DNA of 64,000 nucleotides, from assembly GCF_013167455.1 (NCBI RefSeq), contig NZ_CP038328.1; one strand, given 5' to 3'. The first letter of the stretch is position 1; each line of letters starts with the position of its first letter. Origin of the DNA: Escherichia coli O157:H7. Lineage in GTDB: Bacteria > Pseudomonadota > Gammaproteobacteria > Enterobacterales > Enterobacteriaceae. Below, in pieces: positions 12,001 through 18,000 of this stretch. The position numbers were made by a program.

Positions 12001-15000
12001 TTCCGTGGCGCATAGCACTGCCAGCTGAATAACACATCCCCGTCAATACGGCCCTCGCTGTACGCTTACGCGTAATCGGGGCAGACGCTATTACAAAGCT
12101 GTTGATGCTAATAACCGAGCCAACAGAATGGCGAAAAGGCCAAAACCGTGCTTACTGGATCAAAATTTACCATTGCGAAAGCTTGTTCTGGAAAAGCTGG
12201 AGATGAAATGGTCTCCAGAGCAAATATCAGGATGGTTAAGGCGAACAAAACCACGTCAAAAAACGCTGCGAATATCACCTGAGACAATTTATAAAACGCT
12301 GTACTTTCGTAGCCTGATTACCACTATAAAAAGGCTGCTATTGAGTATGTTGCTCAGATGCTCATATCAAATATCGGTAATCTTGAGGAATACACATTTG
12401 TTCCCGTACCACCATCCAAATGCCGTACAGATGCCGCTTACGATGACCGTATGACAGAAATTCTGCGAATTGCGCAAACCTACGAACCATGGCTGGATTT
12501 CTGGGAACTGGTTGTGCAAAACGTATCAACAATAGCCTCTCATACCGCAACAAACCGGCCCTTACCAGAAGCGATTATGGCAAACTACCAACTGGATGAA
12601 CAATTACTGGAAGGGTGCAGGCCCTAGATTGTTATTTTTGATGACGTTCTCACTGCCGGTAGTCATTTTAAAGCGATGAAAAGCCTGATACTACAACATA
12701 TTCCTGAAGCCTGTATACTGGGACTCTTTGTTGCCCGAACAACCCGGGGAGCTCAAATTATTTAAAAAGGGTAAAGTACTCCTTAAAATTAAATCACTGA
12801 TTCATCGCCGTCAGCTATAATCCTGTACCCCATCGCTTTATAACCCCGCTGACGTTTATCCCACATTCTGAGCAGCACAGGATACGCGGTATCCACAAAA
12901 TCAATGATCCTGACATCGCTTTTACCGGTATGCTCTCTGTGAAGACGCCCTGCATACTGCTGTAATGTCCCTTTCCATGACACAGGCATGGCAAGAATCA
13001 GCGTATCCAGCGGAGGGTGGTCAAATCCCTCACCAATAAGTCTGCCTGTTGACAACAAAATTCGAGGAGAATCGGGAGGAAGAGCATTCAGCCCGGATAT
13101 CAGCATCGCACGCTTTTTTTTCGATAGTCGACCATGGAGAATAAAGGGAGACAATTTCAGTGAATTCATCACTGATGCTATCTCATCCAGATGATCTGTA
13201 CGTTCAGTCAGTACCAGAACTTTTCGCCCCTGCCCGAAAGCTTTCATGGCTTCTTCAGCTATCGCCACCGTTCTGTCATGATCCAGAGCAATTTCTCTGA
13301 AAATATCCTGGATTCTCGCATCCGATGGTAAATGACCAGATGTAAAACGGGAACGGATCAGTACCTCCAGATTATGTGGGCTTTCCTTCGGGCGGACCGC
13401 TGTATGGCGAATGGCACCACAGTACATAAAAATAATGGGATGCAGACCATCCCGTCGGATTGGTGTTGCCGTCAGGCCAAGCAGATATCTGGCATTCGTT
13501 TCCTTCAGAATCGCAGAAAATGAAACCGCGCCAATATGATGGCACTCATCCACAATGATTTGCCCATAATTCCTGACCAGAGGTTCAACTTCTCCTTGTC
13601 TGGATATGGACTGCACCACCGCAATATCAATATTGCCACAGGGTTTATGTTTACCTCCCCCGATAATACCAATACTGTCACCGGCCTGCAGAAACACCGC
13701 GAGACGCTCCTGCCACTGCTTCAGCAATTCAGTCCGGTGTACCAGTATCAGTGTATTCACTTTCCGCTTGGCAATCACTGCCGCTGCGGTAACTGTCTTA
13801 CCAAAAGCCGTTGGCGCACAAAGCACACCAGTGTCATAACGGAGTAATGCCGAAACGGCCTCTTCCTGCTCCGCTCTGAGGTTTCCCATAAAAACGGCAT
13901 TACATTCCGTCCCGGCAAATCGTTTATCGATTAATTCTGCAGCAATATTGTTGTCCCTAAGGAAAGATAATACGCTGTCCAGACATCCCCGGGGCAACGC
14001 AATGTGTTGCGGGTAATTCTCCGCACAACCTATAACACGGGGCTTATTCCAGACTGACATACGCATTGCCTGAGCCTTATAAAACTCAGGGTTCGGAAAT
14101 GCTGCCAGCCGAATAAGTCGGTTAATCAGCACCTGAGGTAATTGCGCTTTTTCGAAATAGATCTGGTTTGCCAGCGTGATTTTCAGCGGTTCTGCAATAG
14201 AAATATTCAGTCTGTTTCCTGATGATTTTTTCTCTTCCCACGGCGTACCCAGGTCTTCTTCGTTGATAAAATTCACATCCAGAGGATGGATACTCCCTGT
14301 AGCCCGTAATATCGTCGGTTCAATATCCTGCACATTCATCGGGGTCACCGATACAAGAAAAGCCCACTGATCAGGATAAGGCTGGAGATTCATATCAACA
14401 AAAACGCTTCCCCCCAATTCACGCGGTCTTTTTTGCAGAGGTAACGCTATGAGATTACCAAATCCCCCTTTTGGCATAGTATCCTGATTAGGAAATAATC
14501 GGTCATAAGACCCCAATCGCAGCTGTCGGGTCCGACTACACGTATAGCTAATAATAGCAGTCCCCAGACGGCGAGCTTCGCGGGCCGAAACTCGTGAGGC
14601 AAAAAATATCCAGACATGCGCCCCCTGACGTGAACGGGATATTTCCAGCGCAGCAGGTACACCCAGCTCATCACAGGATCGCATGAATGCGGATGCATCC
14701 TTCTGCCATTCAGCTTCATCAAAATCAACTGCCAGAAAATAACAGGAATCATCTTCCAGCAACGGATACATCCCGACAGTATGGGTACCGGCCAGATGGT
14801 GGTAGATGACGAGATCGGATACAGGAATCAACTGACGGTGAGCGCAGTCCCCACATTTTATCCGGGGTTTACCGCATATTCTCGCCTGCCATTCGTTAGC
14901 GCAGGCAGGAGAGTACCCTGATTTGCCGCTGGTTTTACTTTCCCATCTAAGTGCCCATACATCATCACGCCCACGAAACAACCGACGAAATAATGCAACC

Positions 15001-18000
15001 TTCTCGTCGGTGGATAATACAGAAACGCGCTGCACAGGAGTCTGCGGTTTACGTCGCCATTCAATCCCATGAGCTTCAAGTAATGAGACCAGACGGGCAT
15101 TTTCTGCCCTCAATGCAGCTAATTCATCACTGTCAGATTTATGAACCATATTCGTTACCTGTATCCGATCCACTGAGGCACCACGGCAGAAATTCGGGTC
15201 CCCTACACTGATGACAAAGCGCCCCGCCCTCTTCTGCCTATTAACTCAAGCACCTCCCAACAACTTACAGAAACTTAATTCTAATACCTAATACAGCTGT
15301 AATTCAGTTATGTCGTGGTCGGCCCCGGTTACTTTTTTCGGGAAGCCTGCTACGCCTCAGAATAATACCGTGTTCTTTCTGATCCTGTTTGGCCAGATAG
15401 CTAAGGGCGTAACGTAAGTCGTCTACCGCAGATTTATCACTATAGTGAATTACGTGATCGATACGCACCGGGTATTTGTCTTTAGCCCTGCACAGGTGAA
15501 AATAACCCTCCCCTTCCGTGATCCGCCTCCAGATATCTCCCAGTTGCCTGGATATCCGATAAGATTTGTTGTGACGTTGCCCATCCAGGTAGCCGATAAA
15601 ATGAATATGAAGTCCCTTGTTTGACGTATATTCCATTACCCAGTAATATCCCGCCAGCATCGTTTGGGTTTCACTAAGTAAGCGGTGCATTTCAATACAC
15701 ATACTGTGCCTACAGGAATGACCAAAACTGGGCGTGTCTTTCCTGTAGGCAAAATCAATTCTGAAAGGTAACAGTTTAGAAAAACGTTGAAACAGACCTT
15801 CCATGTGTTCATTCACGTCTTTCAGAATCATGAAGTCCATTTCGTAATTGGGATTAGCATTATACATTTTATAGTCCTTACTTTATAAAAGTTACAGGAA
15901 GGTGGAATTACATAAATACTGAGAGTACAGAAACGCCGTACCGCGGCATTAATAAACGAGGTAACCAGCAGCACAGACAACCTGATAAAACTGTTTCGTA
16001 TTACCTCATTACTCCAAAGAGGTAATATTTCAGAGTACAGTAAGACTCACTTAAACTGAGGACCAGTACGAATTACAATGGTAAAAACACACCTCATAGA
16101 ATTGAGTTTAAGGAAGTACCATTCAATCACTTACAGGAAGTAATCTGACATTCACAAAAGCCAGTATCGGGTAGCCACAGGCAACACCGCTATTAATACT
16201 TCTGTACCATTAAGTAAAAACAGCGACCCAGCTTAAGGCCTCTACAGATATTTAACTTCACCATAAAAATGATGGTATACAGACCATACCCCACACACCA
16301 TAAGAATATTATTTCATACAGGAAAGATTATATTTTTTCATACCTATAAACTGTAACAGAGCCATAACATACTCTAATAGTGTTCCGGTACGTAACCAGT
16401 GTTAAGTGCGTACAAGACAACATAACAGATCACATAACTTCCACTAATAATACTAATTAACCTAAATTATTTATTGAACACGAAAACAATGAAGGCCCCA
16501 CCTCACCTCAGACTAAAGCCGACAATATCCTGAGCAACACTCTATCCAATAGTAAATAGTGGTTACACCAGTTATATTTACTGACTGACCTGTACCAGAG
16601 TTTTCTAATACAACGCTGACATGGTAAAGACATTAGTCTCCTCCGCAAGTAGCAGAGGAGACTATATGTACTCAACGATTAAGTCGTTCAGAGGTCAAAG
16701 TTAGGTGCGACACACAACGTTTTTCCCTCAATAACCGGTACAACTCTGTTTTGTTCATACAGTAAATCCAGTAACCAGTTGATTTTATCCTTTTTCCGGA
16801 AACGGTTCGGACCACGCTGTAAAATGTCATTTTTTTTCATACAGAGGATCCCCTTCTCAATACAATAGCTTTTTATCCAGTTGAAAAGTTCAAGCTCCTC
16901 TGGAATGAGTCGCACAGGTACGGTCAGGGCAGAGTTGTCAAAAGTTAACGGATTAGACAACCGCACATACTCATTACCGTACCATATTGCTAATTCTCTC
17001 GCCATTTCTGCAGTGTAAGGGGAAATCTCCCCCTCTTCACCGCTCGAATGGTAAATAAGTCCTGCCAGTCTTGCCATATACTCTGCATTTTTAGCAGCAT
17101 ATTCCCGGCAATGTCTTAAAGGCCCCAATCCCCCCAGCTTCGATTCCACATCATTGTAATAATCCGTCCAGATTCTGGCAGCCTGAGGAGAAAAGTGAAG
17201 GCAACGTCGTTCACCACTCATCGCCAGACTTTCATCAATAAGCTCATTGATCATTATCCTTGTCCCCTGCGTTGATGTTGGTTGACACATCAAAAACCTT
17301 GCATGATGTCCTGACGTTTTCACAATTTCTTTTTTTCGCGTACAAAAACCTTTGTGGTAAACATCAGGCTGAATCATCACCGATATCGTCAGTCTTGGCT
17401 CCTTCAAATTAATTCCGGGAGATGATTTCCTGTCGATGAAAAGAGAACCTCCATCCCACAAAGTGTTAATAATTCCCAGTTTACTCATGGCCCGGCTGTC
17501 AAAAATTACCCCCCCTTCACTGGATACAAGAGCAAAAGAGCGATTGCTATCGGAGTAATATTTTAACATTCCCTCTATCGTTGTCTCATTAAAAATTGTT
17601 CGACGTATCTGCGGCGGAACAGGAGGTTTATTCAGATGCGTTTCAAGCTCTGATTCTGTTGCCTTGTAATCTTTACCGGCACGAATCTCTTTATGAAATT
17701 TTGATTCCAGCGCTTTTTGTTTTTGCTCCCATATTTCCTTTTCTGTACTGTAATTCTCAACCAGTTTCGCGTATTCATCCGCCAGGGCTTCATCCCTGAG
17801 ATAAAATGCTTTCATAAACACTTTATCCACGGTCGTTTTCCTTTCACCGGAATCAGCCAGAATCAGAGAGTAAAGATTAACAGGCCCATGTAAATTTCCA
17901 GGTCTGCACACGTCAATCTGATTCTGACAGGCAATTGAGATCGCTGTTAATGCGGATGTTGCCACCATAGCCAAAGGTGCCTGTGTATTTTTTTGAGTTT

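Follow-up and report, generated by a model that had tools for sequence, protein, structure and literature searches.

The closest described system is the IS-excision enhancer (IEE, ECs1305) of enterohaemorrhagic Escherichia coli (Kusumoto et al. 2011, PMID 21224843; Calvo et al. 2023, PMC9943667). The published role of IEE is transposase-dependent IS excision (PMC9943667; bioRxiv 10.1101/2023.06.07.543989). In iee deletion mutants, IS629/IS3-family elements no longer excise at high frequency unless iee is supplied on a plasmid. IS excision also requires a catalytically active transposase (bioRxiv 10.1101/2023.06.07.543989). The IS3, IS1, and IS30 families respond to IEE; IS4, IS5, IS26, and IS621 do not. 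The gene is carried in SpLE1 or SpLE1-like integrative elements, and iee alone on a plasmid restores excision of IS600 from lacZ in K-12 (PMC9397093).

Purified IEE is a Mn2+-preferring (Mn2+-dependent) DNA polymerase that is error-prone and causes dislocation of primer and template; it is also a DNA-dependent ATPase, and it does not unwind duplexes (PMC9943667). It uses dNTPs, not NTPs, because Y128 replaces the ribose-sensing histidine (PMC9943667). DNA ends are joined via microhomology: two 3' overhangs sharing at least 4 nt are synapsed and extended, and end joining in vitro failed at 2 nt of homology. Synapsis requires both domains; the C-terminal domain has to be physically present, ATP hydrolysis is dispensable, and the K451A mutant still synapses ends in vitro (PMC9943667).

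In this study, a window of 64,000 nt from E. coli O157:H7 was analysed, in which an earlier note had described a 794-aa Cys-cluster helicase. Its open reading frame exists, on the minus strand at 12789-15173, and by mechanical ORF call begins with GTG at 15173. The start accepted and annotated in both RefSeq and Sakai, however, is the ATG at 15149, which gives 786 aa. A published iee knock-out primer terminates exactly on this ATG, and both published primer arms mapped uniquely, on either side of the gene (12741-12769 and 15147-15176). All 786 residues of the protein agreed with those of ECs_1305 in E. coli O157:H7 Sakai, which is named "IS-excision enhancer IEE"; one cluster member carries this source name as well. 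Y128, D142, D144, S171, Q175, G176, H178, D216, K451, and R735 were all found at their published positions (PMC9943667). The Sakai SpLE1 region and the window were 99.986% identical over 50 kb, with the common gene order int, ECs1300, IS1 remnant, alpA-like, yfjI-like, ECs1304, iee, and IS30/ISEc8. This comparison located IEE in the SpLE1 integrative element. The flagged gene was identified, with a probability of about 0.9, as iee, encoding a stand-alone IS-excision enhancer enzyme of enterohaemorrhagic E. coli SpLE1. No evidence contradicted the identity of the gene, and uncertainty is confined to the mechanism. Both iee and its function are already published for exactly this gene, and no new system is present here. 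None of the three functions that the earlier note proposed (a solitary defence helicase, a replication helicase of the island, or a decayed system) is the documented one. The features of the locus are listed in Table 1.

Table 1. Features at and around iee in the 64,000-nt window.
Feature	Position	Strand	Evidence
iee (ECs_1305), IS-excision enhancer, 786 aa + stop	12789..15149	-	786/786 identity to Sakai ECs_1305; 10/10 published landmark residues; knock-out primer matches
AEP primase-polymerase domain, N-terminal, residues 1-290; motif A D142/D144, motif B H178, motif C D216	14280..15149	-	Pfam, PADLOC, AF2 model; limits from PMC9943667
Conserved Cys4 motif C83-x8-C92-x6-C99-x2-C102, probable zinc knuckle (inferred)	14844..14903	-	Family conservation, model
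Linker and SF2 ATPase/helicase-like domain, residues 291-786; motif I K451, motif II DECH 534-537, Arg finger R735	12792..14279	-	Pfam, nearest solved relatives
shosT (PRTase toxin) remnant, not part of iee	12315..12765	+	ShosT model, 9e-15
IS30 remnant (IS30 nt 350-594), internal breakpoint abutting shosT	12070..12314	+	BLAST against K-12 IS30A, 100% identity; Sakai repeat annotation
ECs_1304, 187 aa, remote YagK/YfjJ (inovirus Gp2-type) backbone gene, HUH-like 'HIH' motif	15304..15867	-	RefSeq name; weak Pfam matches
ECs_1303, YfjI-family (DUF3987), CP4-57-type module backbone	16688..18091	-	40% identity to K-12 YfjI, E 3e-120; RefSeq name

The fusion of two domains with a full SF2 core, proposed from the sequence, was confirmed. 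An N-terminal region of about 400 aa was present as described; it had gone unrecognised that about residues 1-290 of this region form an AEP primase-polymerase domain, with a linker of roughly 130 aa after it. The N-domain matched Pfam AEP-TOTE (PF22548) at 2.4e-98 and DNA_primase_S at 1.1e-07, and IEE matched the PADLOC PrimPol model, from a list of CRISPR-associated genes, at 2.5e-147. PMC9943667 assigns the AEP domain to the "Z1568-like" family. The catalytic residues D142, D144, H178, and D216 were invariant in all 42 family sequences, comprising IEE and 41 representatives at 41-62% identity. The C-domain matched ResIII (7e-24), DEAD (2.4e-10), and Helicase_C (1.5e-07), and its helicase core was complete, with GKT containing K451, DECH, and R735. 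Its nearest solved relatives were XPBII (1.2e-34), Rad25, UvsW, and RadD. IEE is an AEP polymerase fused to an XPB/RadD-like SF2 ATPase. NCBIfam gave only sub-threshold matches (PrimPol_Msp, 83.6 bits against a cut-off of 200 bits; RadD; XPB), and the protein therefore has no equivalog.

The AF2 model of the AEP domain had a pLDDT of 92. The closest solved AEP fold was the CAPP Prim-Pol of Marinitoga (PDB 7NQD/7NQE/7P9J; Foldseek E 1.6e-15, 22% identity), with a TM of 0.79-0.83 to 7NQD/7P9J, and the CAPP profile matched IEE at 6.8e-28. Unlike IEE, CAPP has a link to CRISPR adaptation, and its solved construct carries no fused SF2 ATPase. LigD PolDom/Prim-PolC and Pol theta are, like IEE, Mn2+-preferring end-joining polymerases using microhomology, and Pol theta also has a helicase-like domain fused to the polymerase. 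Their fold match to IEE was distant (TM about 0.4), and IEE differs from them in having no ligase/phosphoesterase domain and in acting together with a transposase.

A Cys cluster had been reported in the N-terminal region with a first spacing of x9. The cluster is real, but this spacing is x8. The corrected pattern, C-x8-C-x6-C-x2-C, occupies residues 91/100/107/110 in the 794-aa frame, which are 83/92/99/102 of IEE. Every Cys4 residue was kept in 41 of the 42 full-length sequences, and the pattern was detected by regular expression in 120 of 135 family representatives. The pLDDT of the IEE model at the four cysteines was 95-97. The motif lies outside the IEE segment that aligns with CAPP; the alignment begins after it. 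No mention of the motif was found in two papers on IEE. Zinc is the probable ligand of the Cys4 motif, which would serve to stabilise or position the AEP domain on DNA.

The YagK-like gene noted next to iee is a real 187-aa gene, ECs_1304, named 'inovirus-type Gp2 / YagK-YfjJ domain' in RefSeq; its similarity to K-12 YagK/YfjJ is remote. The Pfam matches were weak (YagK_YfjJ_C, i-E 0.033; REP_ORF2-G2P, 8e-4), the BLASTP match to K-12 YfjJ (3e-4) was confined to a WxxEYxxxxxxHxH motif, and NCBIfam gave no match. ECs_1304 may be placed in the backbone of a CP4-57-type module as a remote member of the YagK/YfjJ (Gp2-type) family. It was not kept beside iee homologues in the other contexts sampled. 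A 187-aa gene overlapping the start of the iee homologue in Cupriavidus necator was unrelated (E 9.0), and a YagK-like gene as a conserved iee partner was rejected. An unannotated 605-aa neighbour of iee had no Pfam match. Around these genes, no RNA families were found, and promoter-like sites were no more frequent than in shuffled sequence.

IEE is an AEP-helicase fusion encoded by an integrative element, and its gene lies downstream of alpA-, yfjI- (DUF3987), and Gp2-like genes; the protein could be the replication primase-helicase of an SpLE1/CP4-57-type island, like pRN1 ORF904 or the P4 alpha protein. This function, which the earlier note had also considered, was judged highly improbable. 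The helicase is of the monomeric SF2 type (XPB/RadD/UvsW-like), not ring-type SF3, SF4, or MCM; the purified protein shows no unwinding and takes dNTPs rather than NTPs; and homologues also occur outside such islands. A search for an origin around these genes found no iterons or tandem repeats.

The PRTase-type gene reported downstream on the opposite strand is indeed a fragment, matching the ShosT model. Its 5' end (about 175 nt) and the entire upstream shosA are missing, and it contains an in-frame TGG>TAG stop at 12625-12627. Comparison with the intact locus of strain C311 identified shosA and the 5' part of shosT as the lost neighbours. In C311 the pair (ShosA, 4e-103; ShosT, 1.1e-50) forms an overlapping operon of a DprA-like gene and a PRTase gene. 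With shosA and the beginning of shosT gone and a nonsense codon in what is left, ShosTA is non-functional here. The fragment is what remains of a decayed toxin-antitoxin/defence pair, ShosTA, that is unrelated to iee. The repeated decay of this locus beside iee accounts for an orphan 58-aa "hypothetical protein" annotated there in hundreds of genomes.

The fragment ends 23 nt past the iee stop codon, which might suggest that IEE is half of a decayed two-gene system with the PRTase as its partner. This is hardly credible: the PRTase gene is convergent with iee, its intact locus is the operon of a known two-gene system, iee functions alone in K-12, and most genomes have an intact iee next to a truncated shosTA or none at all. 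The description of a decayed system thus applies to the ShosTA remnant only, and iee is intact. The 5' end of shosT is cut at the junction with IS30. A second IS30 piece (nt 1-358) is found at 9271-9628, separated from the first by an inserted ISEc8. The IS30/shosT junction has a 2-nt 'CC' overlap, which is too short, and IEE-mediated joining at this site is not claimed.

No partner gene had been evident beside iee, and none is present. Neighbours of iee homologues differed in every sampled context (C311, 5CRE51, and five non-E. coli contexts), which supports the stand-alone status of iee. The term 'solitary' in the proposal of a solitary defence helicase holds because cloned iee alone works in K-12; the documented role is IS excision, not phage defence. 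PMC12458937, citing Aravind, Iyer & Burroughs 2022, gives TOTE as TPR, OB, TBP, Effector, and the AEP domain of IEE belongs to the effector family PF22548 'AEP-TOTE'. No TPR-OB (cold-shock domain) gene was found within about 10 kb of iee among annotations and ORFs, or near the homologues in C311, 5CRE51, and the five non-E. coli contexts. A TATA-binding-protein-like gene, as in the definition cited there, was likewise absent near iee and in the same contexts. The name 'TOTE conflict systems' for this domain hints at a wider role in mobile-element conflicts.

AbpAB (YfjL/YfjK) of CP4-57 occupies the same island slot, directly after alpA-yfjI-yfjJ, and includes an SF2-type protein. In contrast to AbpAB, iee has the opposite orientation, an AEP domain instead, and no AbpA partner; no YfjL-like ORF was found near iee among ORFs and annotations. 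IEE as a YfjK/AbpB homologue was rejected (BLASTP E 0.008, P-loop only).

IEE might act primarily as a stand-alone immune effector of 'TOTE-type' AEP against phages and plasmids, with IS excision as one visible side. The domain is listed as 'TOTE conflict system AEP' in Pfam and RefSeq, the matching PADLOC PrimPol model comes from the CRISPR-associated list, and iee, next to the ShosTA remnant, takes the cargo slot occupied in CP4-57 by abpAB and rnlAB. Some longer family members have a C-terminal PLD nuclease domain, and one homologue lies beside a Schlafen/AlbA-type ATPase gene. This role is nevertheless unlikely. The TOTE companion genes were absent near iee in E. coli and in the five non-E. 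coli contexts sampled; PADLOC, run on the region, gave PrimPol and ShosT model matches and no complete defence system at iee; and the known phenotype of IEE is transposase-dependent. No phage protection by IEE is reported in the papers found, and the review by Chandler contains neither 'phage' nor 'defense'. A more general version is also rather unlikely: the family could be stand-alone immune effectors that recognise replicating or nicked foreign DNA (IS circles, phages, plasmids), with IS excision a special case and the zinc module a DNA-end or priming sensor. The basis named for it is the near-invariant Cys4, the AEP-TOTE name, the PLD-nuclease-fused relatives, and the defence-island slot.

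A general host DNA-repair or damage-tolerance polymerase, acting in MMEJ or translesion synthesis independently of IS elements, would be consistent with what IEE does in vitro (MMEJ, extension of mismatches, and dislocation of primer and template), with its analogy to LigD PolDom, Prim-PolC, and Pol theta, and with the authors' speculation that IEE contributes to variability (PMC9943667). Such a function is quite improbable, as the in vivo phenotype is restricted to particular IS families and depends on an active transposase, IEE co-occurs with IS629-like transposases in 94.75% (PMC9943667), and IEE has no ligase or phosphoesterase module.

For IEE as an IS-excision enhancer, the following course of excision is proposed. 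The transposase would nick or cleave the IS end, and IEE would capture the exposed 3' end. The captured end would be aligned on a short direct repeat (microhomology) across the element and extended, so that the donor is rejoined without the IS. Where homology is found further away, a flanking deletion would result instead of clean excision. IEE could act in either of two ways: in the model of Calvo et al., a double-strand break is closed by end joining, and in that of Chandler et al., strands are switched during copy-out replication. [quoted passage not shown] Strand switching is slightly favoured over end joining, since copy-out-paste-in is the transposition mode of every responsive IS family. 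Target duplications of the IS3 family are only 3-4 bp, and the IS insertions observed in this analysis add 1313-1314 bp. Set against such short duplications, the need for at least 4 nt of homology in vitro counts against the mechanism.

Only two points are added here to published knowledge of IEE, namely that its Cys4 motif is conserved and that the neighbouring remnant is ShosTA. The Cys4 motif, conserved like the catalytic residues, is a clear target for mutagenesis and could inform the choice between end joining and strand switching. As published, IEE causes insertion sequences to be lost, genes to be reactivated, deletions to arise, and even operons to form in the major lineages of Shiga-toxin-producing E. 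coli.

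The open reading frame (ORF) found in the scan was correctly described, and it is a gene already known and experimentally characterised: iee, the gene of the IS-excision enhancer IEE (ECs_1305). The ORF carries a GKT P-loop and a DECH box, and its Pfam matches were AEP-TOTE (PF22548, residues 57–285, 2.4e-98), DNA_primase_S (1.1e-07), ResIII (7e-24), DEAD (2.4e-10) and Helicase_C (1.5e-07). Since these motifs and domains were found in the ORF, the architecture proposed in the earlier note, an N-terminal domain joined to a helicase core, is real. The N-terminal domain is not an unknown one, however; the profile search identified it, and it is an archaeo-eukaryotic primase-polymerase (AEP). 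The four cysteines of the reported cluster are also present, at positions 91, 100, 107 and 110 of the 794-aa product, but the first interval is eight residues and not nine (C-x8-C-x6-C-x2-C). In RefSeq records whose DNA is identical, the gene begins at the ATG at 15149, which gives 786 aa.

Features of the iee region and their coordinates in the window
Feature	Coordinates	Strand	Details
Nested IS wreck	9271–12314		IS30 nt 1–358, complete ISEc8, IS30 nt 350–594
Decayed shosT fragment	12315–12765	+	PADLOC ShosT model, 9e-15
Large ORF (iee)	12789–15173	−	794 aa from GTG; six-frame ORF list
C-x8-C-x6-C-x2-C motif	14844–14903	−	IEE residues 83–102; conserved Cys83/92/99/102
YagK-like gene	15304–15867	−	187-aa ORF; six-frame ORF list
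ECs_1300	20124–21941	+	605-aa ORF between integrase and IS1 remnant; AT-rich, ~31–33% GC

The N-terminal 420 aa of IEE returned thousands of relatives in a homology search, one of which, from E. coli, carries the source name "IS-excision enhancer IEE". The RefSeq record for the O157:H7 strain Sakai gives this name to ECs_1305, within a feature called "phage-like element SpLE1", and the window protein was identical to ECs_1305 at 786 of 786 residues. Sakai 1340000–1389999, in reverse complement, matched window 4103–54102 with 7 mismatches in 50 kb; therefore, SpLE1 extends from about 23504 leftwards in window coordinates. All ten residues stressed by Calvo et al. 2023 were at their published positions: Y128, D142, D144, S171, Q175, G176, H178, D216, K451, and R735. 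The published iee knock-out primer arms had unique matches at 12741–12769 (+) and 15147–15176 (−). The ATG at the end of the second arm is thus the accepted iee start. At least 1000 recorded contigs encode a protein identical over all 786 aa, and among 5426 complete E. coli genomes, about 670 contain at least 80% of the 3.9-kb iee region.

IEE has no solved structure. Its helicase half is closest in sequence to XPBII, Rad25, UvsW, and RadD; for the AEP half, the closest match is the CRISPR-associated Prim-Pol (CAPP) of Marinitoga. The AF2 model of residues 1–300 was confident (pLDDT 92, pTM 0.82). Its best match among solved folds was CAPP (E 1.6e-15, TM 0.79–0.83), with Prim-PolC and LigD PolDom as distant next matches. 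When 1.84 billion representatives were searched exhaustively, the AEP domain had 8287 relatives at E ≤ 1e-3, 1339 of them at ≤ 1e-30. Full-length family members are typically 780–830 aa. Some members of 940–980 aa end in an additional PLD-type (HxK..D) nuclease domain (P0206, L011 2038–4914, P0241), and one PLD-bearing member adjoins a Schlafen/AlbA_2 plus HATPase gene. In Cupriavidus necator (L008 8001–10369), two overlapping genes, one for the AEP part (461 aa) and one for the helicase (328 aa), take the place of a single iee homologue; an unrelated 187-aa gene precedes them and overlaps the start.

The conservation of the cysteine motif was investigated in IEE and 41 full-length representatives that were 41–62% identical to it over the domain. 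C83, C92, C99, and C102 were each kept in 41 of the 42 sequences, a conservation equal to that of Y128 and nearly that of the invariant D142, D144, H178, D216, and K451. In a pattern search, 120 of 135 representatives had the motif ahead of motif A. Its place in IEE is N-terminal to the CAPP-alignable part, in a region modelled by AF2 at pLDDT 95–97 with little regular secondary structure. The motif is probably a zinc knuckle, and we infer zinc binding. The words "cysteine" and "zinc" were not used of IEE in the two papers covered, Calvo et al. and the Chandler preprint.

The opposite-strand PRTase fragment reported downstream of iee was confirmed by the ShosT model. Its frame contains an in-frame TAG at 12625–12627, reads through the PRTase signature IVIFDDVLTAGSH, and closes at the TAA at 12763–12765, with 23 nt between it and the iee stop. 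In RefSeq, the remnant appears as a 58-aa hypothetical protein (WP_000136079.1). At the orthologous position, E. coli C311 has an intact overlapping pair that converges on iee (L002 7910–9426): a DprA-like gene (ShosA model, 4e-103) and a 208-aa PRTase gene (ShosT model, 1.1e-50). In the alignment, the TAG of the window is TGG in C311 shosT. At 12314/12315, the window switches from internal nt 594 of IS30 to about nt 175 of shosT with a 2-nt CC overlap, and shosA and the shosT 5′ end are deleted at this breakpoint. Traces of the locus were present in 684 complete E. coli genomes, of which only 38 keep at least 80% of shosA-shosT, and at least three different truncation points occurred. It follows that the fragment is what is left of a separate ShosTA system, and the reading of it as a lost partner of IEE was rejected.

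In the adjoining IS wreck, the IS30 copy is split by ISEc8, the two IS30 pieces overlapping by 9 nt where it inserted, and a partial IS600 lies further left. Stimulation of IS30- and IS3-family excision by IEE has been reported (Kusumoto et al. 2011, as cited in later literature). The IS30 and IS600 copies near iee are fixed because they are truncated. In some cattle and O157 strains, IS3-family (IS629/IS1203-like) insertions occur in iee near its 3′ end or in the upstream YagK-like gene, as in E. coli strain 111 (L013 1190–4864) and O157:H7 17B6-2 (L014 3705–5581). Insertions into iee were already known from O121:H19 (PMC9397093).

The YfjI-like gene upstream of iee (467 aa) was 40% identical to K-12 YfjI (E 3e-120). 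The gene order int, alpA-like, yfjI-like, yfjJ-like, cargo is that of CP4-57, in which abpB/abpA and rnlAB form the cargo. IEE was rejected as an AbpB/YfjK homologue, as similarity was confined to the P-loop. The YagK/YfjJ similarity claimed for the 187-aa gene is only remote, and no YagK-like gene was found beside iee homologues outside Enterobacteria in the contexts sampled. No TPR, OB-fold, or TBP gene was near iee in eight contexts; the locus therefore falls outside the TOTE system as defined in PMC12458937. Searches around the iee-region genes for iterons, tandem repeats, and Rfam families found none. The N-terminal part of the YfjI-like (DUF3987) protein at 16688–18091 recurs in a 65-aa ORF at 18292–18489 (−), apparently a partial duplication or what is left of a second copy. 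Directly downstream of the YfjI-like gene is a 13-bp-stem hairpin (16634–16664, −) with no Rfam match, and the ~820-nt stretch before the YagK-like gene (15868–16687) has no ORF of ≥60 aa. ECs_1300 had no Pfam, NCBIfam, or PADLOC match.

According to Kusumoto et al. 2011, as cited in PMC9943667 and bioRxiv 10.1101/2023.06.07.543989, ECs1305 was common to all high-excision strains; its deletion abolished high-frequency IS629 excision, which returned when the gene was supplied on a plasmid. The same accounts state that a DDE-active transposase is also required, that IS3, IS1, and IS30 families respond and IS4, IS5, IS26, and IS621 do not, and that excision is accompanied by deletions of a few bp to >40 kb. 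The AEP domain, assigned to a "Z1568-like family", is a Mn2+-dependent, error-prone DNA polymerase; IEE dislocates primer and template and joins 3′ overhangs through microhomology of ≥4 nt (Calvo et al. 2023, PMC9943667). This joining requires the C-terminal domain and not ATP hydrolysis; the DNA-dependent ATPase is abolished in K451A, and DNA is not unwound (PMC9943667). Plasmid-borne iee was sufficient for IS600 excision from lacZ in K-12 (Nishida et al. 2022, PMC9397093). The three functions suggested in the earlier note miss IS excision, and only "solitary" survives, as iee alone suffices in K-12. The model of Calvo et al. is double-strand-break MMEJ. In contrast, Chandler et al. argued that every responsive IS family is copy-out-paste-in, with no donor break, and proposed strand switching in the copy-out replication step (bioRxiv 10.1101/2023.06.07.543989).
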